64,000 nucleotides of DNA, taken from Centroscyllium fabricii. Its lineage: Eukaryota. The stretch spans positions 9,982,001 to 10,046,000 of the forward strand of contig JBNRSN020000028.1 of NCBI GenBank assembly GCA_051313645.2, in the 5' to 3' direction. Below, in pieces: positions 15,383-45,009 of the stretch (position 1 is the stretch's first letter; each line of letters opens with the position of its first letter). The notes under the pieces are model-generated. The model was not told the DNA's origin. It ran no database searches and saw only the letters and a program-made list of their open reading frames with translations. The position numbers were made by a program, and so were the translations under genes.

Positions 15383-15395
15383 CTTCTTTCTTGTG

Positions 15396-23512: not shown

Positions 23513-23927
23513 GTAGGTATTCATTAATAACTATAGATTGTCTATTTACTTACATATATGTGTGAGTATTCGTCACTGCTGACAATTGATCAAATAATCT
23601 CTCTAAATGTTCAATTTTGCCTGAATATTGGAACATTGATGCCGCTTCTTAATGGAGTAGGGATATGATAATTCAGGGAATAAGGCAAGATTAGGCATTT
23701 GTTAATAATTCAACCTGGAATATTGATAATGCATGTATATAGCGTACAGTTGATTTCCTAGATAGTCAATCTGCTTGGCATCAGTTTTCTGCACTGGTGG
23801 GTAATGCATTGTGCATAATCTCAATTTATGATTTACAAACCAAGGAATCAAACATAACGGCCAGACAGAGCAGGAATGCACTAAAGTTAGTCTGAGAGGG
23901 GTTTTTGCCAAAGGGCGCAATGCTGTG

Positions 23928-23987
23928 TGAATGATGGAGGTTACAAATTGACATTTGGATCTGGGACCAAGCTAATGGTGCAGCCAA
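23928..23987 (+). CDS. TRAJ: J30, family B (chimeric): NDGGYKLTFGSGTKLMVQP
   Basis: A-type 12-RSS, FGSG, GT donor. Confidence 0.9.
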
Positions 23988-24678
23988 GTAAGAGAAGTTT
24001 AATTCTGTATTTTCTATTGGGATGATCACAGTCATTGTTTTGTTAATAAGTATCGTCAGTTCGTCACAATTAAAGGTAACTATCAGCAAAGACTGAACAG
24101 GCTGGGGATCAGTTCTCTGGGAAACAGAAGGCTGAAGGGTGATTAATAGAGGTCTTCAACATTATGAAGCGGTTAGACTTATAGAAGATCTTTCCACTTG
24201 TTGGGGAGACCAACACTAGGGCTGCTCTGTATGATATAGTCATTAATAAATCCAATAAAGTAATCAGGAGAATGTTATTTACCCAGAGAGTGCTTAGAAT
24301 GTGGAATTCGCTACCATATGGAGTACTTGATGGGAATAGCATAGATACAGTTAAGATAAGCACATGAGGGGGAAAGGATTAGAAGGATCTCTAGAGAGGG
24401 TTTGCTAAAGTAGGGAGGGAGGAGGCTTGTGTGGAGTATAATCCCGGGCACAGAACACTTGGGCTGAATGGTCTTTTTCTGTGCAGCCAATTCTATGTAA
24501 TTCTATGTTAATATGATTTGGTATGGAAGATATTAACTGGTTGCACATCACGAATTCAAAGGGAAAGATAAAAGTTATAAAACTCAGAAAACGGGTGGTT
24601 CTTTAAGAAATAACAAGTGATGAAAAATCTGGGAATATATGGCGGGGGAAGGTTTTAGTATCAGCATATCAGGCTGTG

Positions 24679-24738
24679 TGAATGTTGCTGGTAATAAGCT
24701 ACTGTTTGGATCTGGGACCAGGCTCAACGTTATACCAA
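24679..24738 (+). CDS. TRAJ: J31, family C: NVAGNKLLFGSGTRLNVIP
   Basis: C-type 12-RSS, FGSG, GT donor. Confidence 0.92.
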
Positions 24739-25259
24739 GTAAGTGAGATGTTTAAGGATGTCTGTTTTATGGGTTAGAGCATAAAAGAGAAGAAAGTTAA
24801 CAAATTAATGAAATAGCGGATCAAATGGAGAAAAGTGTCAGAAATCATAACTTTGCTCTGTTGCTGTCAGTCCATCCTTCGAGTTAGAAAATAGTGAGCT
24901 GGATCCTCAGTCTGTACCGAAAACATGTAATGCAAGGTGGTAGTCCAGCGCAGTACTGAGGGAGGGTCACATTAACAGAACTACTTGGGAATCAAACGGA
25001 GAGTTCTGATGAACTGATATATAAATGGTAGCCGTAGATTATTAATGAAAAAAAGTAAGTTAAGATTGAGTCATGAACAGAATTATTTTTAATCAGATAT
25101 ACCTAATAAATAAGACTGGGCATTTGAAAACGGTTTCTACAGATAGTATCACAATCATGGCATTGGGTGATACCAAGAATTAAATATAACCGCCAGACAG
25201 AGCAGAAATGCACTAACGTTAGTCTGAAGGGAGTTTTTGCTATAGGGAGTAATGCTGTG

Positions 25260-25325
25260 TGAATGTTGGAGCTGGTGGCAACAAGCTTATATTTGGAAAA
25301 GGGACAAAGTTAACCGTGCAGCCAA
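25260..25325 (+). CDS. TRAJ: J32, family A (longest): NVGAGGNKLIFGKGTKLTVQP
   Basis: 12-RSS, FGKG, GT donor; one extra codon. Confidence 0.92.
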
Positions 25326-26221
25326 GTAGGTATTCATTAATAACTATAGACTGTCTATTTACATACGTATATGGGCGTGTTCTCTTCACAGTTTACAAGG
25401 TATCAAATCATTTATCCAAATGTTCGATTAGTCCTAAATATTGGGACATTTATTATTTATTATTGGAATAAGTAAAGTATTATGTGCGATGGTTCTGATA
25501 AGTGGAGTTAATTTTCTGCCATTTTGCACCTTATTAACCTAAAATGATCATCTGAATTGAACATGATATTGGAGTATGGATATCATAATTCAGGATTATT
25601 GCCAGCATTATAACCTTCAACTAAAAACACTACTGCTTACAATCATCTTGAAACTAATTGCCATCTATTGATGTTAACGACAGGACAATAAAGACACTTG
25701 GCTGTAATAGAACAACCTAAACTCTCATTAATGAACCTACTGATTGACATTGGCAGGGAAAGTTGTCAGAATTCCTAGGCTTGCTGTGTTGTTGTCACTC
25801 CATTCTTTGAGTTAGAAAGTTGCGAGGTGGATCCTCACTCTACACCAAAACCTGTAATGCAAGTTGATAGACCAGCGAGGTACTGAGGAAGGGTTCCATT
25901 TTCAGAACTACTTGGGAATGTTCCACTTTTAGAAGTACTTGGGAAGTATTCGGAGAGTTCTGGTGAACTGATATATGAATGGTAGCCTTAACTCTTTAAT
26001 GCACAAGAAATAAGCCGTGCTTGGGTTACAAACAGAATTTTTAAAAATTAAATATTATTTCGCTTTCATAATTATCAATAGTTATTTAAAATGGTTTGTA
26101 CAGATCGTTTCACAGTAATAGGATTGAGTGATCCCAAGTATTCAAGTACAACCGCCAGACAGAGCAGCAATGTATTAAAGTTAGTCTGAAGGCAGTTTTT
26201 GCTAAAGGCCGCAATGCTGTG

Positions 26222-26284
26222 TGAATACTGGAAATCTCAACACGCTTATTTTTGGAAAAGGGACAAAGTTAATTGTGGAGCCAA
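26222..26284 (+). CDS. TRAJ: J33, family A: NTGNLNTLIFGKGTKLIVEP
   Basis: 12-RSS, FGKG, GT donor. Confidence 0.92.
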
Positions 26285-26591
26285 GTAGGTATTCATTAAT
26301 AATTATAGACGGTCTATTTACTTACATATGAGTGTGTGTTCTCTGCACTGTCCACAACGTGTCAAATCAATTCTCTCAATGTTCAATTAATCCTGAATAT
26401 TGGAACATTTGTGCCACTGTTTATTGGAGTAGGGATATGATAATTCAGGCAATAATGCAAAAATGGGCATTTGTATATAATATAACCTGGAATATTGATA
26501 AAACATAAATATAACATACAGTTGATATTGTAGATAGTCAATATGCCTGGCATCGGGTAAAATGGTTTATGCACTGGGATGTAATGCAGTG

Positions 26592-26648
26592 TGAGTAATC
26601 TCAATAAACTAACATTTGGATCTGGAACCGAACTAATGGTGCGGCCTA
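26592..26648 (+). CDS. TRAJ: J34, family B (native): SNLNKLTFGSGTELMVRP
   Basis: ggtttatgc-12-tgcagtg; FGSG; GT donor. Confidence 0.87.
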
Positions 26649-26867
26649 GTAAGTGAAGTTTAATTCTATAATTTTATTGCGACGATTACAGTCAATACAA
26701 TGTTTTGTTAATAAGCATCATCAGTTCGTTACAATTAAAGGTAACTATCAGCAAAGACTGAACAGGCTTGAGATTAGTTCTCGCAGAAGGACAAGTCTGA
26801 AGGGTGATTAATAGAGGTCTTCAACATTATGAAGCGGTTAGACTTATAGAAGATCTCTCCACTTGTT

Positions 26868-27038
26868 GGGGATAGGGTGGGATATGTGGTGGTGCAGGCT
26901 CGATAGGGATCGAGGGATATGGGGAGAGGGCAGGGGCGGGATACTGGGTTTGGATGATCAGCCATGAACTCATTGAATGGCGGAGCAGGCTCGAAGGGCC
27001 GAATGGCCTACTCCTGCTCCTAGTTTCTATGTTTCTAT
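26868..27038 (+). mobile_element. HE1-like SINE, 3' fragment
   Basis: 3' part plus tail. Confidence 0.85.
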
Positions 27039-27579
27039 CTAGGGCTCCTCTGTGTGATATAGTCATTAATAAATCCAATAATGAATTCAGGAGAAAGTAA
27101 TTTACCTAGAGAGCGGTTACAATGTGAAACTCGCTACTACATTGGAGTACTTGATGGGAATAGCACAGATGCACTTAAGATAGGCACATGAGGGAGAAAG
27201 GATTAGGAGGATCTGCAGAGAGCGTTTGATAAATTAGAGAGGGAGGAGGTTTGGGTGGACCATAAACCCGGGCACAGGCCAGTTGCCCGAATGGATTCTT
27301 TCTGTGCTGCCAATTCTATGTAATGCTATGTGAAAGCACAAAAGAGAAGCAGGTCAACAACTTAATTAAAATGTGGATCAAATGAAGAAAGTATCAGAAA
27401 ACATAACTTTGCTCTGTTGCTGGCAGACCATCCTTGAGTTAGAAAGTTCTGAGCTGGGTCATCACGCTTTACTGAAAAGATGTAATGGAAATCGATACTC
27501 CAGCACAGTACTGAGGGAGGGGTCCACTTTCAGAACTACTTGCGATGCATTCGGGGAATTCTGGTGATCTGATATATAA

Positions 27580-28127
27580 ATTCAATTCAATTCAATTCAA
27601 GTTTTATTGTCATTGCAGAGTACTAGTACAACACAACGAGACGAAGACTCGACGCTCCCGAGAGTAGTGCAAATAAATTGCATGCAAATTGCATACAGAA
27701 AAGTACATGTTCAGGCATCGGAGGAGGACAGTGTTAATGACTGGTCTTCCGGGGATTGCAGGACTTTGGTGGCTGGCTCCCTGTTGTCCCTGTCGAAGCG
27801 AGCGTAGAAGTTGTTGAGTTCCTCCGGTAGGGAGGCATCGCTGGTCGGGGGGCTGGTGTTTCTGCACTTGTAGTCCGTGATGGACTGTATGCCTTGCCAC
27901 ATACGTCGAGGGTCCGAGTTGTTGTGAAAGTGTTCCTCTATCTTCAGTGTCTGATTCCGTTTGGCAGACCTGATACCCCTCTTTAGGTCGGCCCTGGCTG
28001 TGCTGTAAGCCGCCACATCCCCAGATTTGAAAGCTGTGTCACGCACCTTCAGCAGCGAGCGGACCTCCCCATTCATCCAGGGTTTCTGGTTGGGGAATGT
28101 CTTGATGGTTTATTGGGTAGTGACTAA
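27580..28127 (-). mobile_element. Rex1/Babar LINE fragment, internally deleted
   Basis: FPNQKPWMNGEVRSLLKVRDTAFKSGD..RRMWQGIQSITDYK..ELNNFYARFD, joined to a tail aatgacaataaaac(ttgaa)n. Confidence 0.88.
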
Positions 28128-28366
28128 GGGTAGCCTTAGAGTATTAATGTAAAAAGTACGTTTATCCTTGAGTGATGACCAGGATATATATTTAAAAATC
28201 AGAGATACCTAATAAATAACAACGGGCATTTGAAAACGGTTTCTACAGATAGCCTCACAATTATGGCATTGGGTGATCCCAAGTATTCAAATATAACCGC
28301 CAGACAGAGCAACAACGCACTAACGTTAGTCTGAAGGGAGTTTTTGCTAAAGGGGGCAATGCTGTG

Positions 28367-28429
28367 TGAATGCTGGAGGTGCCACCAAACTTATATTTGG
28401 AAAAGGGACAAAGTTAACTGTTGAGCCAA
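28367..28429 (+). CDS. TRAJ: J35, family A: NAGGATKLIFGKGTKLTVEP
   Basis: 12-RSS, FGKG, GT donor. Confidence 0.92.
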
Positions 28430-28789
28430 GTAGGTATTCATTAATAACTGTAGATGGTCCATTTGCTTACATATCTGAGTGTGTCCTCTGCACTGCCCAC
28501 ATCACATTGGAGTAGGGATGTGAGAATTAATGGAATAATTGAAGAATAGGCATTTGTTCATAATTTAACCTGGAATATTGAGAATGCATATATAAAACGT
28601 ACAGTTGATTTCATAGATAATCAATATGGTTGGCATCAGGTCAACGGTTTCTGTCCTGGCATGTAATGCATTGTGCATAAGCACAACTTATGCTGTACAA
28701 ACCAAGTATTCAAACATAGCGGCCAGAAAGAGCAACAATTAACTAAAGTTAGTCTGAAGGGAGTTTTTGCTAAAGGCTGCAATGCGGTG

Positions 28790-28849
28790 TGAATGTTGGA
28801 GGTTTCAAACTAACATTTGGATCTGGGACAAAACTAATGGTGCAGCCAA
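28790..28849 (+). CDS. TRAJ: J36, family B (chimeric): NVGGFKLTFGSGTKLMVQP
   Basis: A-type 12-RSS, heptamer tgcggtg; FGSG; GT donor. Confidence 0.88.
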
Positions 28850-29559
28850 GTAAGAGAAGTTTAATTCTGTATTTTTATTGTGATGATCACAGTTTAAAAC
28901 ATTGTTTTACTAATAAGTGCTGTCAGTTCGTTGCAATTAAAGGTAAACATTACCAAAGACTGAGCAGTCTGGGGATCAGTTCTCTGGGAAAGAGAACTGA
29001 TCCCCAGCTGAAGGGTGCCTTAATACAGGTCTTCAACATGATGAAGGGGTCAGACTAATAGAAGATCTTTCCACTTGTTGGGGAGACCAAAACTAGTGAT
29101 CCTCTGTATCATACAGTCATTAATATATCCAATAAAGAATTCAGGAGAGCGTTATTTACCCAGAGAGTGCTTAGAATGTAGAACTCACTACTATATAGAG
29201 TAGCTGATGGGAATAGCACAGATGCATTTAGGATGCGCCCATTGGGAGAAAGGATTAGAAGGATCTGCAGAGAGGATTTGATAAAGTGGGGAGAGAGGAG
29301 GCTTGTGTGGAATATAAACCCGGGCACAGACCAATTGGGCAGAATGCGTTGATTCTGTGCAGCCAATTCTGTGTAATTCTATGGTAATGTTATTTGCTAT
29401 GGAAGATATTAACTGGTTGCACGTCATAAATTCAAAGGGTCATGTAAACATTCCACAACTTAACTCAAAAAACGGATGGTTCTTTAAGAAATAACAAATG
29501 ATGTAATGTCTGGGAATGTCAGGCTGGGGAAGGTTTTAGTATCAGTATGTCAGGCTGTG

Positions 29560-29617
29560 AATGCTGCTGATTATAAGCTGATCTTCGGATCTGGGACCAG
29601 GCTCAATGTTATACCAA
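29560..29617 (+). CDS. TRAJ: J37, family C: NAADYKLIFGSGTRLNVIP
   Basis: C-type 12-RSS; lacks the leading TG of its paralogues; FGSG; GT donor. Confidence 0.9.
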
Positions 29618-30132
29618 GTAAGTTAGATGTTTAGGATGTCTGTTTTATGTGTCAGCGCATAAAAAAGAAGCAGGTCAACAAATTAATTAAAATGTGGATC
29701 AAATTGAAAAAAAGTGACAGAAACCACAACTTTGCTCTGTTGCTGTCAGTCCATCCTTCGAGTTAGAAAGTCGTGAGCTGGATCCACACTCTGTACCAAA
29801 AGCATGTGATGCAAGGTGATAGTCCAGTGCAGTATTGACGGATGGTTACATTTCTAGAACTACTTGGGAAGCATTCGGAGAGTTCTGGTGAACTGATATA
29901 TAAATGGTAGCGTTAGAGTATTAATGTAAACAGTACGTTTTGCTTGCGTTAATAATCTTAGGAAAAGCAGACAGGGCTAAAAATTAAAAATGGACATTTT
30001 ACAAACGATTTCTACAAATATCACAATTATGGGATTGTGTGGAACCAAGTAATCAAATATAACCGCCAGACAGAGCAGCAATGTACTAAAGTTCGTCTGA
30101 AGGGGGTTTCTGTTAAAGGGGGCAATGCTGTG

Positions 30133-30195
30133 TGAATGCTGGAGCTGGCAGCAAGCTTATCTTTGGAAAAGGGACAAAGTTAACTGTTGAGCCAA
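30133..30195 (+). CDS. TRAJ: J38, family A: NAGAGSKLIFGKGTKLTVEP
   Basis: 12-RSS (ggtttctgt), FGKG, GT donor. Confidence 0.9.
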
Positions 30196-30390
30196 GTAGG
30201 TATTCATTAATAACTACAGGCTGTCTATTTACTTACATACATGTGTGTTTTCACTGAACGGCTGACAATGTATCAAATCATTTCTCAAAATATTCAATTA
30301 CTCCTGAATATTGTAGCATTTACTGGTGTATGGTTATGATAATTCAGGGAATAAAGCAAGAATAGGCATTTGTTCATAAATTAACCTGGA

Positions 30391-30808
30391 ATAGAAACAT
30401 AGAAACATAGAAACATAGAAAGTAGGAGCAGGAGTAGGCCATTCGGCCCTTCGAGCCTGCTCCGCCATTCAATGAGACCATGGCTGATCATCCAAACCCA
30501 GTAACCGATCCCTGCCCTCTCCCTATATCCCTCGATCCCTATCGAGCCTCCACCGACACATATCCCACCCTATCCCCGTAACCCCACATATTCAATCCCC
30601 CTAACACTAAGGGTCAATTTATCATGGCCAATCAACCTAACCCGCACATCTTTGGACTGTGGGAGGAAACCGGAGCACCCGGAGGAAACCCACGCAGACA
30701 CAAGGAGAATGTGCAAACTCCACACAGATAGTACCCGAGGCTGAATTTGAACCCGGGTCTCCAGTGCTGTGAGACAACAGTGCTAACCACTGTGCCACCG
30801 TGCTGCCC
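30391..30808 (-). mobile_element. HE1-like SINE, full length
   Basis: Reverse complement of the 886-1288 family. Confidence 0.88.
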
Positions 30809-31034
30809 ACTCTCTGGGTAAATATTGACAATGCATATATATAACGCACAGTATATTTTGTAGACCGTCATCTGCTTGGCATCACTAAAAGGTTTCTGTT
30901 CTGGCGGGTATTGCATTGTGCATAGTCTCAATTTATGAGGGGCAAATCAAGTATTCAAATAAAACGGCCAGAAAGTGCAGGAATGCACTAAAGTTAATCT
31001 GAAGGGGGGTTTTGCCAAAGGGCACAATGCTGTG

Positions 31035-31094
31035 TGAACGATGCAGGTTTCAAACTAACATTTGGATCTGGGACCAAACTAATGATTCGCCCAA
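31035..31094 (+). CDS. TRAJ: J39, family B (chimeric): NDAGFKLTFGSGTKLMIRP
   Basis: A-type 12-RSS, FGSG, GT donor. Confidence 0.9.
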
Positions 31095-31798
31095 GTAAGA
31101 GAAGTATAATTCTGTATTTTCTATCGGGATGATCACAGTCAAAACATTGCTTTGTTAATAAAAATCTTCAGTTGGTTACAATTCAAGGTAACTATCAGCA
31201 AAAACTGAACAGGCTGGGGATCAGTTCTGTGGGAAACAGAAGGCTGAAGGGTGAATTAATGAAGGTCTTCAACATTGTTGAGGGGTTAGAGTTATAGAAG
31301 ATCTTTCCACTTGTTGGGAAGACCAAAGCTACAGCTCCTGTGTATGATATTATTACTAACAAATCCAATAAAGTATTCAGGAGAATGTTGTTTTCCCAGA
31401 GAGTGCTTAGAATGTGAATCTCGCCACTATATATGAAGTAGTGGATGGGAATAGCATAGATGGATTTAATATAAGCCCATGAGGGGGAAAGGATTAGAAG
31501 GATCTGCAGAAAGGGTCTGATAATGTAGGGAGGGAGGAGGCTTGTGTGGAGCATAATCCCGGGCACACACCAGTTGGGCCGAATGGATTGTTTCTGTGCT
31601 GCCAAGTCTATGTAATTCTAAGTAACAGTTATTTGGTATGGAAGATATTAACTGTTTGCACATCAGAAATTCAAAGTCAAACGCAAACATTCCACAACCT
31701 AACTCAAAAAATGGTTGGTTCTTTAGGAAATAACAAGTGATGTAATGTCTGGGAATGTCTGGCTGGGGAAGGTTTTAGTATCAGTATATCAGGCTGTG

Positions 31799-31858
31799 TG
31801 AATGCTGCTGAATATAAGCTGGTCTTTGGATCTGGGACCAGGCTCAATGTTTTATCAA
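31799..31858 (+). CDS. TRAJ: J40, family C: NAAEYKLVFGSGTRLNVLS
   Basis: C-type 12-RSS, FGSG, GT donor. Confidence 0.9.
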
Positions 31859-32386
31859 GTAAGTGAGATGTTTCTGGATGTGTGTTTTATGTGTTAGAGC
31901 ACAAAACTGGAGCAGGTCAACAAATTAATTAAAATCTGGATCAAATAGAGAGAAGTGTCAGAAGTCATAATTTTGCTCTGTTGCTGTCAATCCATCCTTG
32001 GAGTTAGAAGGTAGTGAGATGGATCCACACTCTGTACCGAAAATATGCAATGCAAGGTGGTAGTCCAGCGCAGTACTGAGGGAGGGTTACATTAACAGAA
32101 CTACTTGGGAATCAAACGGAGAGTTCTGCTGAACCGATATATAAATGGTAGCCTTAGCTTATTAATGAAAAAAGTAAGTTAAGCTTGAGTGATGAACAGA
32201 ATGTTTTTTTTAAGAAAAATCAAATATACCTAATAAATAAGAATGAGCTTTTGAAAACGGTTTCTACAGATAGTATCACAATCATGGCATTGGGTGATAC
32301 CAAGAATTAAATATAACCGCCAGACAGAGCAGAAATGAACTAAAGTTAGTCTGAAGGGAGTTTTTGCTACAGGGAGTAATGCTGTG

Positions 32387-32449
32387 TGAATGTTGGAGGT
32401 GGCAACAAGCTTACCTTTGGAAAAGGGACAAAGTTAACCGTGGAGCCAA
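32387..32449 (+). CDS. TRAJ: J41, family A: NVGGGNKLTFGKGTKLTVEP
   Basis: 12-RSS, FGKG, GT donor. Confidence 0.92.
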
Positions 32450-33353
32450 GTAGGTATTCATTAATAACTATAGACTGTTTACATGCGTATATCGGCGTGT
32501 TCTCTTCACACTTTACAAAGTATCAAATCATTTCTCTAAATGTTCACTTACTCCTGAATATCGGGACATTTATTATTTATTATTGGAGTAAGGATATGAT
32601 AAGTAAATTATCATGAGTGATGGTTCTGATAAGTGGAGTTAATTTCCTGCCATCATGCACCTTATTAACCTAAAATGATAATCTGAATTGAACATGATAT
32701 TGGAGTATGGATATCATAATTCAGGATTATTGCCAGCATTATAACGTCCAACTAAAGACTTTAATGCTTACAATCATCTTGAAACTAATTGCCATCTATT
32801 GATGTTAACGACAGGACAATAAAGACACTTGGCTGTAATAGAACAACCTAAACTCTCATTAATGAACCTACTGATTGACATTGGCAGGGAAAGGTGTCAG
32901 AATTTATAGGTTAGCTGTGTTGTTATCACTCCATTCTTTGAGTTAGAAAGTTGCGAGGTGGATCCTCACTCTACACCGAAAACAGGTAATGCAAGTTGAT
33001 AGTCCAGCGAGGTACTGAGGAAGGGTTCCATTTTCAGAACTACTTGGGAATGTTCCACTTTTAGAAGTACTTGGGAAGTATTCGGAGAGTTCTGGTGAAC
33101 TGATATATGAATGGTAGCCTTAACGCCTTAATGCACAGGAAATAAGCCATGCTTGGGTTACAAATAGAACTTTAAAAAATTCAATATTATTTCGCTTAAA
33201 TAATTATCAATGGTTATTTAAAATGGTTTGTACAGAGAGTTTAACAGTAATAGGATTGAGCGATCCCAAATATTGAAATATAACCGCCAGTCAGAGCAGG
33301 AATGTACCAATGTTAGTCTGAGGGGAGTTTTTGCTAAAGGCCGCAATGCTGTG

Positions 33354-33416
33354 TGAATGCTGGAAATTTCAACAAGCTTATTTTTGGAAAAGGGACACAG
33401 TTAATTGTGGAGCCAA
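33354..33416 (+). CDS. TRAJ: J42, family A: NAGNFNKLIFGKGTQLIVEP
   Basis: 12-RSS, FGKG, GT donor. Confidence 0.92.
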
Positions 33417-33723
33417 GTAGGTATTCATTAATAGATATAGACGGTCTATTTACTTACATATGAGTGTGTATTCTCTGCACTGCCCACAATGTGTCAAATC
33501 AATTCTCTCACTGTTCAATTAATCCTGAATATTGGAACATTTATGCCACTGTTTATTGGAGTAGGGATATGATAATTCAGGCAATAATGCAAAAATGGGC
33601 ATTTGTATATAATATAACCTGGAATATTGATAAAACTTAAATATAACAAACAGTTGATTTTGTAGGTAGTCAATATGCCTGGCATCGGGTAAAATGGTTT
33701 ATGCACTGGGATGTAATGCAGTG

Positions 33724-33779
33724 TGAGTAATCTCAATAAACTAACATTTGGATCTGGACCAAACTAATGGTGCGGCCTA
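33724..33779 (+). pseudogene. TRAJ: J43, family B (native) frameshifted: SNLNKLTFGSGPN*
   Basis: 1-bp deletion (tctggacc vs tctgggacc) brings TAA in frame; could be a sequencing error in a G run. Confidence 0.78.
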
Positions 33780-34481
33780 GTAAGTGAAGTTTAATTTTAT
33801 ATTTTTATTGCGATGATTACAGTCAATACAATGTTATGTTAATAAGCATCATCAGTTCGTTACAATTAAAGGTAACCATCAGCAAAGACTGAACAGGCTG
33901 GGGATTAGTTCTCTGGGAAAGAGAGCTGATCCCCAGCTGATCAATAGAGGTTTACAACATGATGAAGTGGTTAGACTTATAGAAGATCTTTCCACTTGTT
34001 GGGCAGACCAGAACTAGGGATCCTCTCTATGATATAGTCATTAATAAATTTAATAAAGAATTCCGGAGAGCGTTATTTACCCAGAGAGTGCTTAGAATGT
34101 GGAACTCGCCAATATATGAAATAGTGGATGGGAATAGCATAGATGGATTTAATATAAGCCCATGAGGGGGAAATGATTAGAAAGATCTGCAGAGATGGTT
34201 TGATAAAGTAAGGAGGGAGGAGGCTTGTATGGAGCATAATCCCGGGCACAGACCAGTTGGGCCGAATGGGCTGTTTCTGTGCTGCCAATTCTATGTAATG
34301 CTTTGTTAATGTTATTTGCTATGGAAGATAGTAACTGTTTGCACATCAGAAATTCAAAGTCAAACGCAAACATTCCAAAACCTAACTCAAAAAATGGTTG
34401 GTTCTTTAGGAAATAACAAGTGATGTAATGTCTGGGAATGTCTGGCTGGGGAGGGTTTTAGTATCAGCATATCAGGCTGTG

Positions 34482-34541
34482 TGAATGTTGCTGATTATAA
34501 GCTGGTCTTTGGATCTGGGACCAGGCTCAATGTTATACCAA
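34482..34541 (+). CDS. TRAJ: J44, family C: NVADYKLVFGSGTRLNVIP
   Basis: C-type 12-RSS, FGSG, GT donor. Confidence 0.92.
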
Positions 34542-35066
34542 GTAAGTGAGATGTTTCTGGATGTGTGTTTTATGTGTTAGAGCACAAAACTGGAGCAGGT
34601 CAACAAATTAATTAAAATCTGGATCAAATAGAGAGAAGTGTCAGAAGTCATAATTTTGCTCTGTTGCTCTCAGCCCATCCTTGGAGTTAGAAAGTAGTGA
34701 GATGGATCCTCACTCTGTACCGAAAACATGTAATGCAAGGTGGTAGTCCAGCGCAGTACTGAGGGGGGGTCACATTAACAGAACTACTTGGGAATCAATC
34801 AGAGAGTTCTGGTGAACTGATATATAAATGGTAGCCTTAGCTTATTAATGACAATAGTAAGTTAAGATTGAGTGATGAACAGAATGTTATTGAAAAAAAT
34901 CTAATATACCTAATAAATAAGAATGAGCTTTTGAAAACGGTTTCTACAGATAGTATCACAATCATGGCATTGGGTGATACCAAGAATTAAATATAACCGC
35001 CAGACAGAGCAGAAATGAACTAAAGTTAGTCTGAAGGGAGTTTTTGCTACAGGGAGTAATGCTGTG

Positions 35067-35129
35067 TGAATGCTGTAGCTGGCAACAAGCTTACCTTTGG
35101 AAAAGGGACAAAGTTAACCGTGGAGCCAA
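35067..35129 (+). CDS. TRAJ: J45, family A: NAVAGNKLTFGKGTKLTVEP
   Basis: 12-RSS, FGKG, GT donor. Confidence 0.92.
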
Positions 35130-36033
35130 GTAGGTATTCATTAATAACTATAGACTGTTTACATGCGTATATCGGCGTGTTCTCTTCACACTTTACAAAG
35201 TATCAAATCATTTCTCTAAATGTTCACTTACTCCTGAATATCGGGACATTTATTATTTATTATTGGAGTAAGGATATGATAAGTAAATTATCATGAGTGA
35301 TGGTTCTGATAAGTGGAGTTAATTTTCTACCATTATGCACCTTATTAACCTAAAATGATAATCTGAATTGAACATGATATTGGAGTATGGATAACATAAT
35401 TCAGGATTATTGCCAGCATTATAACCTTCAACTAAAGACTTGATGCTTACAATCATCTTGAAACTAATTGCCATCTATTGATGTTAACGACAGGACAATA
35501 AAGACACTTGGCTGTAATAGAACAACCTAAACTCTCATTAATGAACCTACTGATTGACATTGGCAGGGAAAGGTGTCAGAATTTATCGGTTAGCTGTGTT
35601 GTTATCACTCCATTCTTTGAGTTAGAAAGTTGTGAGGTGGAACCCCACTCAACACCGAAAACAGGTAATGCAAGTTGATAGTCCAGCAAGGTACTGAGGA
35701 AGGGTTCCATTTTCAGAACTACTTGGGAATGTTCCACTTTTAGAAGTACTTGGGAAGTATTTGGAGAGTTCTGGTGAACTGATATATGAATGGTAGCCTT
35801 AACTCTTTAATGCACAAGAAATAAGCCATGCTTGGGCTACAAACAGAATTTTAAAAAAAAATCAATATTATTTCGCTTTACTATTTATTAATGGTATTTA
35901 AAATGGTTTGTACAGATAGTTTAACAGTAATAGGATTGAGTGATCCCAAATATTGAAATATAACCGCCAGACAGAGCAGCAATGGATTAAAGTTAGCCTG
36001 AAGGCAGTTTTTGCTAAAGGCCGCAATGCTGTG

Positions 36034-36096
36034 TGAATGCTGGAAATATCAACAAGCTTATTTTTGGAAAAGGGACACAGTTAATTGTGGAGCCAA
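36034..36096 (+). CDS. TRAJ: J46, family A: NAGNINKLIFGKGTQLIVEP
   Basis: 12-RSS, FGKG, GT donor. Confidence 0.92.
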
Positions 36097-36403
36097 GTAG
36101 GTGTTCATTAATAATTATAGACGGTCTATTTACTTACATATGAGTGTGTATTCTCTGCACTGCCCACAATGTGTCAAATCAATTCTCTCACTGTTCAATT
36201 AATCCTGAATATTGGAACATTTATGCCACTGTTTATTGGAGTAGGGATATGATAATTCAGGCAATAATGCAAAAATGGGCATTTGTATATAATATAACCT
36301 GGAATATTGATAAAACTTAAATATAACAAACAGTTGATTTTGTAGATAGTCAATATGCCTGGCATCGGGTTAAATGGTTTATGCACTGGGATGTAATGCA
36401 GTG

Positions 36404-36460
36404 TGAGTAATCTCAATAAACTAACATTCGGATCTGGGACCGAACTAATGGTACGGCCTA
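36404..36460 (+). CDS. TRAJ: J47, family B (native): SNLNKLTFGSGTELMVRP
   Basis: ggtttatgc-12-tgcagtg; FGSG; GT donor. Confidence 0.87.
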
Positions 36461-37171
36461 GTAAGTGAAGTTTGATTCTATATTTTTATTGCGATGATTA
36501 CAGTCAATACAATGTTTTGTTAATAAGCATCATCAGTTCGTTACAATAAAAGGTAACCATCAGCAAAGACTGAACAGGCTGGGGATTAGTTCTCTGGGAA
36601 AGAGAGCTGATCCCCAGCTGAAGGGTGATCAATAGAGGTCTTCAAAATGATGAAGTGGTTAGACTTACCGAAGATCTTTCCACTTGTTGGACAGACCAGA
36701 ACTAGGGATCCTCTGTGTGATATAGTCATTAATACATTTAATAAAGTATTCCGGAGAAAGTTTAGTTACCCAGAGAGTGCTTAGAATGTGGAACTCGTTA
36801 CTCTATGGAGTAGCTGATGGGAACAGCATAGATGCATTTAAGAGAAGCACATGAGGGAGGAAGGATTAGGAGGATCTGCAGAGAGGTTTTGATAAAATAG
36901 GGAGAGAGGAGGATTGTGTGGAGCATAAACCCGGGCACGGACCAGTTGGACCGAATGGGTCTGTTTCTTTGCTGCCAAGACGACGCAATTCTTTGTTAAT
37001 GTTATTTGCTATGGACGATTTTAACTGTTTGCACATCATAAATTCAAAGGGACATGTAAACATTCCACAACTTAACTCAATAAACGGATGATTCTTTAAG
37101 AAATAACAAGTGGTACAATAGCTGGGAATGTCTGGCTGGGGAGGGTTTTAGTATTAGTATATCTGGCTGTG

Positions 37172-37231
37172 TGAATCCTGGTATTGATAAGCTGATCTTC
37201 GGATCTGGGACCAGGCTCAATGTTATACCAA
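37172..37231 (+). CDS. TRAJ: J48, family C: NPGIDKLIFGSGTRLNVIP
   Basis: C-type 12-RSS, FGSG, GT donor. Confidence 0.92.
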
Positions 37232-37757
37232 GTAAGTGAGATGTTTAAGGATATGTGTTTTATGTGTCAGAGCATAAAAGAGAAGCAGGTCAACAAATTA
37301 ATTAAAATGTGGATCAAAGAGAGAAAAGTGACAGAAATCACAAGTTTGCTCTGTTGTTGTCAATCCATCCTTGGAGTTAGAAGGTAGGGAGCTGGATCCA
37401 CACTCTGTACCAAATATATGTGATGCAAGGTGATAGTCCAGTGCAGTACTGAGGGAGGGTTCCACTCTCAGAACTATTTGGAAAGCCTTCGGAGATTTCT
37501 GGTGATCTGATATATAAATGGTAGCCTCAATGTATTAATGAAAAAAGTAAGTTATGCTTGCGTTAATAATTTTATTATTTATTGTTTATCAGACAGGCCT
37601 AAACATTATCAATGGGCATTTTACAAACGATTTCGACAGGCAGTATCACAATTATGGGATTGTGTGAAACCCAGTAATCAAATATAACCGCCAGACAGAG
37701 CATCAATGTACTAAAATTAGCCTGAAGTGAGTTTTTGTTAAAGGGGGCAATGCTGTG

Positions 37758-37820
37758 TGAATGCTGGAGCTGGCAGCAAGCTTACCTTTGGAAAAGGGAC
37801 AAAGTTAACTGTTGAGCCAA
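37758..37820 (+). CDS. TRAJ: J49, family A: NAGAGSKLTFGKGTKLTVEP
   Basis: 12-RSS, FGKG, GT donor. Confidence 0.92.
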
Positions 37821-38230
37821 GTAGGTATTCATTAATAACTACAGATTGTCTATTTACTTGCATACACGTGTGTGTTCTCTGAACTGCTGACAATTTATCA
37901 AATCATTTCTCAAAATGTTCAATGACTCCTGAATATTGGAGTGTTTTTTTTGGAGTATGGATATGATAATTCAGGGGATAATGCAAAGAGCAGGCATTTG
38001 TTAATAAATTAACCTGGAATATTGATAATGCATATCTATAACGTACAGTATATTTTGGAGATCGTCAATCTGCTTGACATCACTAAAAGTTTTCTGTACT
38101 GGCGGGTACTGCATTGTGCATAATCTCAATTATGAGGGCAAATCAAATATTCAAATAAAACGACCAGAAAGAGCAGAAAGGCACTAAAGTTAATCTGAAG
38201 GGAGTTTTTGCCAAAGGGCACAATGCTGTG

Positions 38231-38290
38231 TGAATGATGGAGGTTTCAAACTAACATTTGGATCTGGGACCAAACTAATGGTTCACCCAA
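38231..38290 (+). CDS. TRAJ: J50, family B (chimeric): NDGGFKLTFGSGTKLMVHP
   Basis: A-type 12-RSS, FGSG, GT donor. Confidence 0.9.
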
Positions 38291-38989
38291 GTAAGAGAAG
38301 TTCAATTCTGTATTTTCTATTGGGATGATCACAGTCAAAGCATTTGTTTGTTAATAAGAATTGTCAGTTGGTTATAATTAAAGGTAACTATCAGCCAAAA
38401 CTGAACAGGCTGGGGATCAGTTCTCTGGGAAACAGAAGGCTGAAGGGTACTTTGTAGAGGTCTTCAGCATTATGAGGGGTTAGACTCATAGAAGATCTTT
38501 CCACTTGTTGGGGAGACCAAAACTAGAGCTCATCTCTATGATATGGTTACTAATAAATCCAATAACGAAATCAGGAGAAAACTATTTACTCAGAGAGTGC
38601 TTCGAATGTGAAACTCGCCACTATATGAAGTAGTTGATGAGGCTGGCATAGATGCATTTAAGATAAGCCCATTGGGAGAAAGGATTAGAAGGATTTGGAG
38701 AGAGGGTCTGATAAAGTAAGGAGGGAGGAGGCCTGGGTGGAGAATAAACCCGGGCACAGACCAGTTGGGCCGAATGGATTGTTTCTGTGCAGCCAATTCT
38801 TTGTAATTCTATGTAAATGTTATTTGCTATGGAAGATATTAACTGTTTGCACATCAGACATTGAAAGGGAAATGTAATCATTCCAAAACTTAAATCAAAA
38901 AATGGATGATTATTTAAGGAATAACAAATGATGTAATGTCTGGGAATGTCTGGCTGGGGAAGGTTTTAGTATTAGCATATTAGGCTGTG

Positions 38990-39049
38990 TGAATGTTGCT
39001 GGGACTAAGCTGCTCTTTGGATCTGGGACCAGGCTCAATGTTACACCAA
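38990..39049 (+). CDS. TRAJ: J51, family C: NVAGTKLLFGSGTRLNVTP
   Basis: C-type 12-RSS, FGSG, GT donor. Confidence 0.92.
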
Positions 39050-39567
39050 GTAAGTGAGATGTTTAAGGAAGTGTGCTTTATGTGTTAGAGCACAAAACTG
39101 GAGCAGGTCAACACATTACTTAAAATCTGGATCAAATAGAGAAAAATGTCAGAAATCACAACTTTTCTCTGTTGCTGTCAGCCCACCCTTCGAGTTAGAA
39201 AGTAGTGAGATGGATCCTGTTAAACTCTCTACCGAAAACATGTAATGCAAGGTAATAGTCCAGCGCAATGCTGAGGGAGGGTTCCACTTTCACAACTACT
39301 TGGGAAGCATTCGGAGAGTTCTGGTGATCTGATATTTAAATAGTAGCCTTAGCTTATTAATGAAAAAGGTAATTTATGCTTGAGTGATAAACAGAAAACA
39401 TTGTTTTAATCGGATATAACTAATGAGCATCTGAAAACGGTTTCTACAGAAATTATTACAAATGTAGAATTGGGTGCTACCAAGTATTCGAATATAACAG
39501 CCAGAAGGAGTAGCAATGTACTAAAGTTAGTCTGAAGGGGATTCTTGCTGAAGGGCTCAATGCTGTG

Positions 39568-39630
39568 TGACTGCTGGAGGGTTCATTCAGCTTATCTTTG
39601 GAAAAGGGACACAGTCAATTGTTGAGCCAA
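39568..39630 (+). CDS. TRAJ: J52, divergent family A: TAGGFIQLIFGKGTQSIVEP
   Basis: Heptamer intact, nonamer degenerate (gattcttgc); FGKG; GT donor; possibly poorly used. Confidence 0.8.
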
Positions 39631-39854
39631 GTAGGTATTCATTAATAACTATAGATACCTATTTACTTACATATATGAGTGGGTTCTCTGTACTGCCTAC
39701 AATATATCAAATCATTTCTCTTAATGTGCAACTATTCCTGAATATTGGAACATTTATGCCGCGTATTATTGCAGTATGGATATGATAATCAGGTATGATG
39801 AGTGATGGTTCTGATCAGTGCAGATAACTTTCCTACATTAAGTGCCGTATTAAT

Positions 39855-40254
39855 GGGCGGCACGGTGGCACAATGGTTAGCATTGTTGTCTCACAGCACT
39901 GGAGACCCGGGTTCAAATCCAGCCTCGCGTACTATCTGTGTGGAGTTTACACATTCTCCCCGTGTCTGCGTGGGTTTCCTCCGGGTGCTCCGATTTCCTC
40001 CCACAGTCCAAAGATGTGCGCGTTAGGTAGATTGGCCAGGATAAATTGACCCTTAGTGTTAGGGGGATTGAATATGTGGGGTTACGGGGATAGGGTGGGA
40101 TATGTGTTGATGCAGGCTTGATAGGGATATAGGGAGAGGGCATTGGCGGGGTGCTGGGTTTGGATGATCAGCCATGATCTCATTGAATGGCGGAGCAGGC
40201 TCGAAGGGCCGAATGGCCTACTCCTGCTCCTAGTTTCTATGTTTCTATATTTCT
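39855..40254 (+). mobile_element. HE1-like SINE, full length
   Basis: A/B boxes, core and tail; absent at the paralogous site near 12930. Confidence 0.88.
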
Positions 40255-40851
40255 AACCTAAAATGATTGTCTGAGTTGAACATGATATTGGAGTATGGAT
40301 ATCATAATTCAGGATTATTGCCAGCATTATAATCTTTAATTGAACACTGCAATGCCTACAATCATTTTCAAACGAATTACCAGCTATTGACGTTAACTGC
40401 CGATCAATAAAGACACATGGCTGTAATAGAACAACCTAAGCTGTTATTAGTGAACGGGCAGACTGAAAGTAGGAGAGAAGTGTCAGAAATCCGATGTTTT
40501 CCCAGTTGTTATAAGCCCAACCTGTGCGTTAGAAAGTTTTGAGATGGATCCCCGCACCATACATAAAACATGCAATAACCTTTATAGTCCATCGAGGTAC
40601 AGAGGAAGTGTTCCACTTTGAGAAGTACTTGGGAAGCACACAGCTGCTCAAGAAATAAGCCATGCTTGGCTAATTAACAGAATATTTTCTTTAAACTGTC
40701 ATATATGCGTAATAATTAAAATGGTGTGCACAGATGGTATCACAATAATGGGATTGAGTGATCCCAAGTATTCAAATGTCGCTGCCAGACAGAGCAGTAA
40801 TCTACTAAAGTTAGTCTGAAGGGAGTTTTTGCTAAAGGGGGAAGTGCTGTG

Positions 40852-40914
40852 TGAACCTTGGAGCTAATACCAAGCTTACCTTTGGAAAAGGGACAAAGTT
40901 AACTGTGGAGCCAA
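40852..40914 (+). CDS. TRAJ: J53, family A: NLGANTKLTFGKGTKLTVEP (same peptide as J16)
   Basis: 12-RSS, FGKG, GT donor. Confidence 0.92.
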
Positions 40915-41492
40915 GTAGGTAATCATTAATAACTACAGACTGTCTATGTACTTACATATCCGAGTGTGTTCGCTGTACTGCCCACAATGAGTCAAATCAT
41001 TTTTCTATATGATCAATTAATCCTGAATATTGGAACAGTTATGTCGGCTCTTACTGGAATATGGATATGATAATTCAGTTATTTTGTGATGGCTATAGCA
41101 AGTGCAGCTAATTGTCTGCAATTATGCACGTCATTAACTTAAAATGATGATCTGAAATGAGGATGATTACCTGCATCCATTTTCCTTTGGGAAAATGCCA
41201 AATAATGTTGTGTATTAAACAACAACAACAACTGAGTTCTGATGAACTGATATATGAAGGGTAGCCCTACATTTTAATGAGCAATTAATAAGTTATTCCT
41301 GGTTTATAAACAGGCTAAAAACAGCCATGTGTGTTTAATAATTCTCAGTGGTCATTTAAAACGATTTGTACAGAGAGTTTTCACGATAATGGGATTGAGT
41401 GATCCCAACTGTTCAAACATAACCGCCGGACAGAGCAACAATGTACTAAAGTGAGTCTGAGAGGAGTTTTTGTTAAAGGGAGCAATACTGTG

Positions 41493-41552
41493 TGAATGAT
41501 GGAACTTACAAGCTTATCTTTGGAAAAGGGACAAAGTTAACTGTTGAGCCAA
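41493..41552 (+). CDS. TRAJ: J54, family A: NDGTYKLIFGKGTKLTVEP
   Basis: 12-RSS (tactgtg), FGKG, GT donor. Confidence 0.92.
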
Positions 41553-41834
41553 GTAGGTATTCATTAATAACTATAGACTGTTTATGTACTTACATATATG
41601 TGTGTGTTCTCTGCACAGCCCACAATGTATCAAATCATATCTAAATGAATCCTGAATATTGTACATTTATATAGTAATTCGGGCATCCTGAGTGATGTGG
41701 GAATAATGTAAGATGAGGCACTTGTTATAATTTAACCTGGAATATTGATCATGTTCAAACATAATTGATTTCGTAGATAGTCAATATGCTTGGCATCAGG
41801 TGACAGGGTTTATGCAGTGGCATGTAATGCTGTG

Positions 41835-41891
41835 TAAATACTTTCAATAAACTAACATTTGGTTCTGGGACAAAACTAATGGTGCAACCAA
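41835..41891 (+). CDS. TRAJ: J55, family B (native): NTFNKLTFGSGTKLMVQP
   Basis: ggtttatgc-12-tgctgtg; FGSG; GT donor. Confidence 0.9.
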
Positions 41892-41981
41892 GTAAGTGAA
41901 GTTTAATTCTGCATCTTTTATTAAGATGACCATTGTCCAACCATTGCTTTGTTAATACGTATCATCAGTTCATTCGAATTC

Positions 41982-42166
41982 GGGTTACGGGGATAGGGTG
42001 GGATATGTGTCAGTGCAGGCTGGATAGGGATCGAGGGATATGGGGAGAGGGCAGGGGCAGGGTACTGGGTTTGGATGATCAGCCATTATCTCATTGAATG
42101 GCGGAGCAGGCTCGAAGGGCCGAATGGCCTACTCCTGCTCCTATCTTCTATGTTTCTATGTTTCTA
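41982..42166 (+). mobile_element. HE1-like SINE, 3' fragment
   Basis: 3' part plus tail. Confidence 0.85.
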
Positions 42167-42284
42167 AAGGTAAATAATAACTATCAGGAAAGACTGAATA
42201 GGCTAGGGATCATTTATCTAGACAAGATAAGACAGAGTGGTGACCATATGAAGGTCATTAACAGTATGAAGGGACTTCATAGGG

Positions 42285-42522
42285 TAGAAACATAGAAGAT
42301 AGAAGCAGGAGTAGGCCATTGGGCCCTTCAAGCCTGCTCCGCCATTCAATGAGATCATGGCTGATCATCCAAACCCAGCACCCTGCCTCTGCCCATAGAT
42401 CCCTATCGACCCTGCACCGACACATATCCCACCCTATCCCCGTAACCCCACATATTCAATCCCCCTAACACTAAGGGTCAATTTATCCTGGCCAATCAAC
42501 CTAACCCGCACCTCTTTGGACT
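42285..42522 (-). mobile_element. HE1-like SINE, 5'-truncated
   Basis: Reverse complement of the 3' half. Confidence 0.85.
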
Positions 42523-43031
42523 TAGACATAGATAAGGTCTTTCCACTTGTTGGGGAGACCAAAGATAGGGCTCAGCGATATGGGATAGGCATTAAATAAT
42601 CCAATAATGGATTCAGGAGACATTTATTTACCCGGAGAGTGCCTAGAATATGGAACTCGCTTCTACATGGAGTAGTGGATGGGAATAGCATAGATGCACT
42701 TAAGATAAGCCCATTGGAAGAAAGGATTCGAAGGATCTGCAGAGAGCGTTTAATAAAGTAGGGAGGGAGGAGGCTAGTGTGGAGCATATACCCGGGCACG
42801 GACCAGTTGGGCCGAATGGGTTGTTTCTGTGCTGCGAATTCTATGTAATTCTATGTTAAAGTTATTTGGTATGGAAGATATTAACAGTTTGTACATCATA
42901 AATTCAAAGAAAAATGTAAGCATTCCAAAAGTTACCTCATAAAACGGTTGATTCTTTAAGAAATAACAAGTGATGTAATGTCTGGGAATGTCTGGCTGGG
43001 GAATGTTTTAGTATCAGTATATCAGGCTGTG

Positions 43032-43088
43032 TGAATCTTGGTGATAAGCTGATCTTTGGATCTGGGACCAGGCTCAATGTTATCCCAA
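43032..43088 (+). CDS. TRAJ: J56, family C (last C): NLGDKLIFGSGTRLNVIP
   Basis: tgttttagt-12-ggctgtg; FGSG; GT donor. Confidence 0.9.
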
Positions 43089-43602
43089 GTAAGTGAGATT
43101 TTAAGGATGTCTGTTTTATGTGTTAACGCACAAAAGAGAAGCAGGTCAACAAATTCATTGAAATGTGGATCAAATGAAAAAAGTGTCAGAAAACATTACT
43201 TTGCTCTCTTGCTGTCAGCTCATCCTTGAGTTAGAAAGTTGTGAGATGGATCCTCAGTCTCTACCGAAAACATGTAATGCAAGGTCCAGCGCAATACTGA
43301 GGGAGGGTTACACTTTCAGAACTACTTGGGAATCAATCGGAGAGTTGTGCTGAACTGGTGTATAAATGATAGCCTTAGCATATTAATGAAAAAAGTAAGT
43401 TCTACTTGAGTGATGAAAAGAATAGTTTTAAAAATCAGATATACCTAATAAATAGCAATGGACATTTGAAAACGGTTTCTACAGATAGTATCACAATTAT
43501 GGCATTGGGTGATTCCAAGTATTTAAATATAACCGCCAGACAGAGCATCAATGTACTAAAGTTAGTCTGAATGGAGTTATTGCTAAAGGACTCAATGCTG
43601 TG

Positions 43603-43665
43603 TGAATGTTGGAGGTAATACCAAGCCGATCTTTGGAAAAGGGACAACGTTAATTATGGAGCCAA
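43603..43665 (+). CDS. TRAJ: J57, divergent family A: NVGGNTKPIFGKGTTLIMEP
   Basis: Nonamer agttattgc, heptamer intact, FGKG, GT donor. Confidence 0.85.
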
Positions 43666-43750
43666 GTAGGTATTCATAAATATCTAGAGAAGGTCTATTT
43701 ACTTAGATATGCGCATGTGTTCTCTGCACTGCTGACAATGTATCAAATTT

Positions 43751-44150
43751 GGGTGGCACGGTGGCACAGTGGTTAGCACTGTTGCCTCACAGCACTGGAG
43801 ACCCGGGTTCAAATCCAGCCTCGGATACTATCTGTGTGGAGTTTGCACATTCTCCCCGTGTCTGCGTGGGTTTCCTCCGGGTGCTCCGGTTTCCTCCCAC
43901 AGTCCAAAGATGTGCGGGTTAGGTTGATTGGCCAGGATAAATTGACCCTTAGTGTTAGGGGGATTGATATGTGGGGTTACGGGGATAGGGTGGGATATGT
44001 GTCGATGCAGGCTCGATAGGGATATGGGGAGAAGGCAGGGACAGGGTGCTGGGTTTGGATGATCAGCCATGATCTCATTGAATGGCGGAGCAGGCTCGAA
44101 GGGCCGAATGGCCTACTCCTGCTCCTATATTCTATGTTTCTATGTTTCTA
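43751..44150 (+). mobile_element. HE1-like SINE, full length
   Basis: A/B boxes, core, tail. Confidence 0.88.
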
Positions 44151-45009
44151 AATCATGTTTCTATAAATTCAATTAATCCTGAATATTAGAATATGTATTC
44201 CGCTTATTATTGGAGTATGTATTTCATAATTGAGGTATTCTGAGTGATGGTTCAGAACAGTCCAGCTGATTGTCTACCATTATGCATCTTCTTAACCTAA
44301 AACGATAATCTAAATTAACCATGATCACCTCCATCCATTTTCCTTCGGGAAAACGCCAAAAAAAGGTTGTGCATTAAGCAACAGCAACTTGTATTATCAA
44401 GCAAAATTTCACACCGAGGCACATAAAGAAATATTTGAATGGCTGATCAGGAGCACGAAGGTCTTAAGGAGATTCTTAAAGGAGGAGAGAGAAATAAAGA
44501 GGTGGATAGGTTTAGAGAGGGAATGCCAGTTCTTGGTGCCAAGTAGGTGGAAGAACCGACTGATATTTGATGAGAAAACTGTCAGAAATAGTAATAAGTT
44601 GGCTCAATTGCTTGGCAGCCCATTCTGTGCGTTGTAAAGTAGTGAGATGGATCCCCATTCCATAGGTGAAATATATAATCCAAGATGATATTCCAGGGAA
44701 GCACAGAGGGAGCGTTCCAACTTCAGAGGTACTTGAAAATGTATTGGAGGTTTCTGATGAACTAATATATAAATGGTAGCCCAACATGTTTTAACGCAAA
44801 AAGTAATATGTCGTGCTTAGGCAAAGAACAGGCTACAAATAGTCATGTATGCATTATGATTATCAATGGTCATTTAAAATGGTTTCTACAACTAGTACCA
44901 TAATAATGGCATTGGGCCATCCCAAGAATTCAATAATAACCACCAGACAGTGCAGCAATATACAAACGTTGGGCTTTAGGGAGTTTTTGTTAAAGGGCGC
45001 ACTGCTGTG

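Follow-up and report, generated by a model that had tools for sequence, protein, structure and literature searches.

A 64,000-nucleotide stretch of the genome of Centroscyllium fabricii (contig JBNRSN020000028.1, positions 9,982,001 to 10,046,000 of the forward strand; hereafter the window) holds part of an array of joining (J) segments whose sequence features match those of a T cell receptor (TCR) alpha-type, or TRAJ, cluster. Two tandemly duplicated J segments in the window are embedded in a 423-bp island that is identical in both copies except at three adjacent codons, which are predicted to encode part of complementarity-determining region 3 (CDR3). It is likely that the island was homogenised by gene conversion while diversifying selection favoured different germline CDR3 residues. 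Selection acting against a background of conversion is a textbook mechanism; the finding itself is real and solid, and extends to the whole array.

A duplicated J pair that differs only in CDR3 codons

The two copies of the island lie at an offset of 2680 bp (coordinates are given in Table 1), and a preliminary description of the window had reported that only three positions separate them. Direct comparison of both copies returns exactly these three mismatches: T at 32393 and C at 35073, G at 32396 and T at 35076, and G at 32399 and C at 35079. They are the second positions of three adjacent codons in the J frame, which read GTT GGA GGT (VGG) in copy 1 and GCT GTA GCT (AVA) in copy 2, giving the predicted CDR3 parts NVGGGNKLT and NAVAGNKLT, respectively. 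Each copy carries one J with a 12-bp-spacer recombination signal sequence (RSS), a TG start, an FGKG motif and a GT donor 34 nt past the F; RSS scoring was against the consensus.

The tandem duplication that holds the pair is approximately 4% diverged outside the island (67 events in 1761 non-coding columns), whereas within the island no difference lies outside CDR3. The island is the longest identical run of the duplicate, and none of 20,000 category-preserving permutations matched it (maximum of 369 versus 408, with the CDR3 core masked). Since identity ends on both sides, the island is most likely a conversion tract; unequal crossover was rejected as its cause, as this would make the whole repeat unit identical. 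A third close paralogue, the J at 25292, departs from both copies at identical sites within the island. The chance that three random differences would all fall inside the 15-nt CDR3 core is p = 3.6e-5, but this figure is post hoc and concerns a single pair, and so the array-wide tests carry the weight.

Replacement changes are concentrated in CDR3 codons across the array

Age and short length usually put J segments beyond the reach of selection tests. The region analysed here, consisting of the window and 100 kb on each side (264 kb), contains 111 plus-strand J, of which 84 fall into four young families by a rule-based grouping (A, 52; B, 9; C, 15; D, 8), 23 are old and four are unassigned; array statistics exclude one minus-strand match and approximately eight degenerate or missed units that were recognised later. 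The 84 young near-copies allow a direct measurement, with omega (dN/dS) of approximately 2-6 in the CDR3 codons versus approximately 0.25 in framework region 4 (FR4) of the same 63-bp segment. The other pairs for which the preliminary description had noted a similar bias are all present: 33383/36063 (F/I), 45039/50349 (AGGI/VGGN), 60859/62286 (N/S) and 52591/54300 (G/V plus I/T), the last of which was matched to its J65/J67 via a numbering offset.

A first test, in which pairs were picked by flank similarity and pairs of unequal CDR3 length (0-5 per threshold) were skipped, gave a replacement-to-flank ratio of 1.6-3.6-fold. Choosing pairs on their flanks biases such ratios upward, and the test has been superseded by three fairer ones. 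At the kilobase scale, seven alignments were used, with pairs picked by whole-alignment identity and not by their J flanks. Positions 1, 2 and 3 of the core codons differ at 11/78, 21/79 and 4/78 sites, respectively, compared to 1095/12,631 for non-coding DNA, and FR4 positions 1, 2 and 3 differ at 12, 5 and 20 of 242; Fisher tests give p = 3e-4 and 3e-6, values that are optimistic given that the alignments share ancestry. In a tree-free measure of diversity, position 2 of codons 2-4 reaches 0.546 versus a flank mean of 0.231 in family A (51 of 52 J, p = 0.001) and 0.516 versus 0.223 in family C (14 of 15 J, p = 0.006), while third-position diversity is 0.127, 0.163 and 0.074 in families A, C and B, respectively. 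Parsimony on held-out flank trees assigns 19 changes to position 2 of codon 2 and three to its position 3, where the flank mean is 4.95 (288 columns), and second positions rank within the top 0.3-2% of flank columns. The codon-level dN/dS analysis that the preliminary description had proposed was run for four sets of J, with the codon model applied on fixed flank trees only. Omega for the CDR3 core is 4.15 (35 J, p < 1e-5), 2.20 (15 J, p = 0.09), 6.60 (11 J, p = 0.015) and 5.79 (9 J, p = 0.06), and FR4 omega on the same trees is 0.23-0.27. Diversifying selection on germline CDR3 codons, as first suggested from the focal pair, is thus supported by the kilobase-scale, tree-free diversity and codon-model tests. 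Across the array, amino-acid-changing differences are in excess over silent and non-coding ones in CDR3 codons 2-6, and FR4 shows the reverse.

A second pair resembling the focal one lies just past the window (L005, J at 976 and 2946). It shows four differences in 465 bp, a tract divergence of 0.9% versus 7.3% outside, plus three CDR3-coding replacements (N/K, V/A and D/Y).

Several observations weigh against selection as the explanation. The diversity test gives no significant result for family B (9 J, p = 0.30), and two of the four omega tests are not significant, although the direction is alike in all four. Recombination between paralogues can inflate omega on a fixed tree, and third positions are somewhat below neutral (core 0.127 and FR4 0.101 versus 0.231). 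The same CDR3 peptide is found in the duplicates 53302/54985 (no CDR3 differences in a 4.8% tract), 26615/36427 and 13570/40881, and NDGGYKLT occurs three times in the array. In the focal pair, were all three replacements to postdate conversion, with no neutral change in approximately 330 sites, omega would have to be very high; histories with a spared or patched CDR3 are preferred below for this reason. All of the data, moreover, come from one genome. As third positions are below neutral, internal omega overstates the effect; measured against non-coding DNA, position 2 shows an excess of approximately 3-fold and replacement sites taken together one of 1.6-3.6-fold, and about three times neutral is the safer effect size.

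The low third positions also bear on the possibility that there is no positive selection, and that CDR3 replacements evolve nearly neutrally while change at silent sites and in flanks is limited by conversion and by constraint at the DNA level (AID motifs, microhomology and splicing). In agreement with this, core and FR4 third positions are both less diverse than the flanks, and WRCH/DGYW motifs in the core of expanded J number 194 versus 137 +/- 10 under a composition-weighted synonymous null (copies are not independent), with the caveat that the 20 old J show no such core excess (41 versus 38). Second positions, however, exceed non-coding DNA itself by the approximately 3-fold given above, including in pairs unselected on J flanks and relative to DNA more than 300 bp from any J, and they rank high among flank columns; this explanation is quite improbable. 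The excess of these AID-type WRCH/DGYW motifs in expanded J possibly reflects hotspots kept for somatic hypermutation. In the K-L codons, too, the motifs exceed the synonymous null, both in young (201 versus 115) and in old J (43 versus 29), where copies are likewise not independent.

Selection for non-redundant combinations of codons, or 'repulsion', is not claimed. A value of 88 versus 110 was obtained in 35 nine-codon family-A J (p = 0.015), but 15 eight-codon J show the opposite effect and family C shows none, and so it was not upheld.

Mutagenesis and artefact as unlikely sources of the pattern

A localised germline mutator could also act on the 5' end of J, either through AID at WGCW motifs or, where RAG nicks the RSS, through error-prone repair. 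A test of germline AID was called for because the alanine codons in the CDR3 context form WGCW motifs, and because such motifs are sites of somatic hypermutation in shark TCR-alpha (PMC5931798). Core WGCW sites differ at 15/60, RAG-like rearrangement in shark germ cells has been reported for immunoglobulin (Ig) genes (PMC2193156), and four of the longest identical runs span a J or start no more than 25 bp from its 3' end. The excess at silent and non-coding WRC/GYW sites expected from AID was, however, found neither in the flanks, where WGCW divergence of 0.121 is like that of other non-CpG C:G sites (0.103-0.126; CpG sites, 0.236), nor at the silent G of the AAG CTT (AGCT) motif, which is kept in 50 of 51 J, and AID hotspot bias was rejected. 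SYC cold-spot sites in the core are high too (6/29), and core positions 1, 2 and 3 show 9, 17 and 5 differences versus context-corrected expectations of 8.6, 8.0 and 7.4. Error-prone repair at the RAG cut was rejected on account of the conserved heptamer-adjacent bases, the five bases adjoining the cut differing at 3/92. A mutator of either type is very unlikely.

It is extremely unlikely that the pattern is an artefact in which assembly or polishing merged the copies, or that the variants are somatic. Polishing can produce perfect identity between near-copies, and the read evidence consists of contigs from one study that is possibly the source of the assembly, in which popped bubbles can hide differences. 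Nevertheless, both J are unrearranged with an intact RSS, and the bias is array-wide and frame-specific, unlike an artefact. Contigs of four runs from two samples were compared over 31650-33800: those of each sample include letters that distinguish copy 1 and letters that distinguish copy 2, and the downstream part of the island has approximately twice the single-copy depth in three runs (12.3/7.4, 19.3/9.0 and 19.1/8.8). X1 and X2 have C at 32393 and 32399, and X3 has the reference G at 32399. For the AVA version, the read evidence is suggestive without being proof: the positions listed are 40 of 93, 32396 not among them, and a contig with C at both sites could derive from the J at 37787 or 30162.

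Probable gene conversion and the history of the focal pair

Under the favoured explanation of conversion combined with diversifying selection, gene conversion would have evened out the stretch around two tandemly duplicated TRAJ-type J. The replacement excess would reflect selection on TCR-alpha CDR3 residues, which in cartilaginous fish may be largely germline-determined because the joining of variable (V) segments to J is often microhomology-guided (in this array, 107 of 111 J keep a single RSS phase and 99 of 111 start with TG). In the focal pair, conversion probably spared CDR3, perhaps in the form of two one-sided tracts that left an older CDR3 untouched, which is what the 'peak of divergence' model describes (PMC3924837), or a small patch from a neighbour and at least one point mutation (GGA to GTA) came after it. 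A single genome does not suffice to distinguish between these sub-histories. The search for donor tracts proposed in the preliminary description found no exact donor for the AVA version in 264 kb (best match, 10 nt), and a single one of the 51 family-A J has GTA at codon 3, which makes at least one of the changes a new point mutation.

The same donors are relevant to a scenario without current selection, in which micro-conversion shuffles a small set of old CDR3 variants and the GCT..GCT of copy 2 comes from the J at 37787 or 30162. Copy 2 has one mismatch in 22 nt from both of these J, the copy 1 version matches the J at 43632 exactly over 23 nt, and the J at 37787, located downstream of copy 2 by one repeat period, is a weak candidate for the donor. 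A patch from 37787 or 30162 plus one point change is also the shortest history when 25292 is the outgroup (three versus four events, by hand count on the alignment), and CDR3 sites are almost unlinked to each other and to the flanks (r2 of 0.03-0.04). However, this match involves only two informative sites, and both states are common (GCT..GCT is present in 4 of 35 J); the flanks of the J at 37787 and 30162 are 15-30% away from the focal pair. The sharing of multi-codon haplotypes shows no consistent excess, with a deficit in the 35-J set and a small excess in the 15-J set, and shuffling cannot account for variants being at second rather than third positions. Shuffling of old variants in the absence of selection is therefore considered unlikely. 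Short-tract conversion had originally been put forward alongside selection. Conversion is supported by the island and by the decay of linkage with distance, but in its short-tract form it does not stand as an equal alternative, given the absence of an exact AVA donor, the single GTA codon and the inability of conversion alone to create a second-position bias.

The longest-run test is significant in six of the seven kilobase-scale alignments, and linkage among 96 informative family-A sites decays with distance (Spearman -0.14; 0/2000 permutations). Homogenisation is nonetheless patchy, as kilobase-scale divergence less than 200 bp from J (0.076-0.135) is not below that more than 300 bp away (0.045-0.060). 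The flank homogenisation of the preliminary description does not hold as a general property of the DNA near J, where an apparent dip in divergence came partly from choosing pairs on those flanks. Identical runs at J are only a lead towards J-initiated exchange, since J are approximately 850 bp apart and are the most conserved pairing seeds. The J at 53302 is a mosaic: its upstream flank and CDR3 are like those of 54985, its downstream 460 bp are 97.7% identical to 51083, and the switch lies inside the J.

A broader scenario is that a few founder J were amplified to approximately 84 germline copies, with CDR3 codons driven apart by positive selection and J-initiated exchange, possibly through germline RAG nicks, homogenising flanks and swapping 5' ends, including the insertion into another J of one cassette of RSS plus CDR3 start that founded a J family. 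In this full form, the scenario is unlikely.

Comparison with known systems

The TRAJ cluster of the cartilaginous fish TCR alpha/delta locus (Giorgetti et al. 2023, PMC10322711) shares with the present array a large J cluster before one CLxTDF constant exon, a distance of 34 nt from FGXG to the donor, a fixed RSS phase and 5' TG microhomology. Unlike that cluster, 84 of the 111 J described here represent a recent expansion of four close families, with a median J spacing of 850 bp in the expansion versus 2035 bp in the old part. In its available text, PMC10322711 treats microhomology and junction diversity, and not selection among J paralogues. In 'peaks of divergence' under conversion, as in red/green opsin, RHCE/RHD, and the haplotype shuffling of major histocompatibility complex (MHC) and Ig genes (PMC3924837), duplicates are likewise homogenised while divergence is kept at a small selected target. 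The target here differs from the opsin, RH and MHC cases in consisting of 3-5 codons of a 63-bp rearranging segment, with almost no silent differences and with recurrence in dozens of copies.

Human germline TCR-alpha also exhibits selection on TRAJ residues that shape CDR3-alpha, in the form of balancing selection around TRAJ37 (Mantena et al. 2026, PMC13396459). That case, however, concerns allelic variation at one old J, with a codon-level diversifying test reported for V genes, whereas the present one concerns young paralogues. The hypermutation described for nurse shark TCR-alpha (Ott et al. 2018, PMC5931798) shares the locus type, the taxon group and replacement-biased CDR changes, but is somatic, biased to AID hotspots and found in rearranged genes, whereas the segments here are unrearranged and without hotspot preference. 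No report of omega above 1 among TRAJ paralogues was found in the open-access literature, supplements aside; related arrays may be among those covered by the J tables in PMC10322711. The present result favours the view that adaptive pressure acts on how many germline J there are, and on their sequence, where TCR-alpha joining is guided by microhomology, and it names particular CDR3 codons as candidate targets of selection.

Array anatomy and locus identity

Table 1. Features of the J array and of the focal pair, in positions of the window
Feature	Positions	Strand	Remarks
Identity island, copy 1	32223..32645	+	Probable conversion tract
RSS of J copy 1, 12-bp spacer	32359..32386	+	Nonamer 32359-32367, heptamer 32380-32386
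J coding segment copy 1, NVGGGNKLTFGKGTKLTVEP	32387..32449	+	Starts TG; GT donor at 32450
Variable CDR3 codons copy 1, GTT GGA GGT (V G G)	32392..32400	+	
Identity island, copy 2	34903..35325	+	
RSS of J copy 2, 12-bp spacer	35039..35066	+	Same sequence as copy 1 RSS
J coding segment copy 2, NAVAGNKLTFGKGTKLTVEP	35067..35129	+	GT donor at 35130
Variable CDR3 codons copy 2, GCT GTA GCT (A V A)	35072..35080	+	
Tandem duplication, approximately 2.68-kb period, holding both copies	31052..37969	+	31052-35282 aligns to 33738-37969, 90.3%
Third close paralogue, NVGAGGNKLI (J at 25292)	25260..25325	+	One codon longer; outgroup to the pair
J NAGAGSKLT (J at 37787)	37758..37820	+	One register downstream of copy 2; one mismatch in 22 nt at heptamer/CDR3 start
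J NAGAGSKLI (J at 30162)	30133..30195	+	Other near-match to copy 2 CDR3 start
TRAJ-type array in window, 72 intact-motif J	633..63745	+	Part of 111

The whole array extends from approximately 38 kb before to 24 kb after the window. The 45 family-A units counted in the preliminary description correspond to 44 intact units in the window and one broken unit near 10,040. A GT donor lies 34 nt from the start of the F of the FGXG motif in 109 of 111 J, as is characteristic of TRAJ, and the RSS spacer is 12 bp in 72/72 window J, with 12 preferred over 23 in all 40 flanking J listed. Approximately 3.7 kb past the last J is a C1-set exon (Pfam PF07654, E 4e-7) with the motif CLVTDFFP. A large J cluster followed by a CLXTD(F/XF) constant exon matches the features given in PMC10322711 and points to a TCR-alpha-type J cluster. 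As CLVTDFFP also fits the TRD signature CLXXXFXP, it is the position of the exon that carries the TRAC call. A rough motif scan of the 62 kb before the first J found no upstream TRDC exon, which the trdc-traj-trac order would place there, and a C1-set search (150 of 390 candidates scored) listed neither an upstream TRDC nor the known downstream constant exon. Protein searches returned no named TRAC homologue of the constant exon, the PDB matches being generic Ig constant domains. C1-set matches, to which no isotype was assigned, are clustered on many contigs of the 7.2-Gb genome and, within the contig of the array, at 11-14 and 43-48 Mb; this fits the elasmobranch arrangement of dispersed Ig C1 clusters, some in linkage with TCR alpha/delta, set out in PMC12227049.

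The heptamer of expanded J is non-canonical, mostly TGCTGTG or GGCTGTG; CACTGTG or TACTGTG is found instead in many of the old J located at the array ends. The J at 14696 has AT instead of a GT donor, and the J at 29584 is without the 5' TG and outside the usual RSS phase. Two further broken units lie at approximately 7590-7650 and 10000-10080, one with TTT AGA for FG and one without a heptamer. Close to the focal pair, a D-type J at 33724-33779 is frameshifted in the assembly sequence by a one-base deletion in the FGXG region (TTT GGA TCT GGA CCA), and its paralogues at 26615 and 36427 are intact. An interspersed repeat at approximately 31190-31620 and 33980-34300 was copied with the tandem duplication and has diverged copies elsewhere in the region.

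Family B (for example 2486, 19883, 21917, 23954 and 38257) is chimaeric. The unit is D-type up to D coding base +13, with the D RSS decayed, followed by approximately 119 bp containing A-type upstream flank, RSS and initial CDR3 codons, after which D sequence resumes at +14. It resembles a clean germline insertion by which the RSS and the start of CDR3 were replaced and a new J family arose. Two mutually similar long reading frames of 1067 and 479 amino acids (L011:2406-5606, minus strand, and L012:8462-9898, plus strand) lie downstream of the constant exon and by appearance may be retroelement-like.

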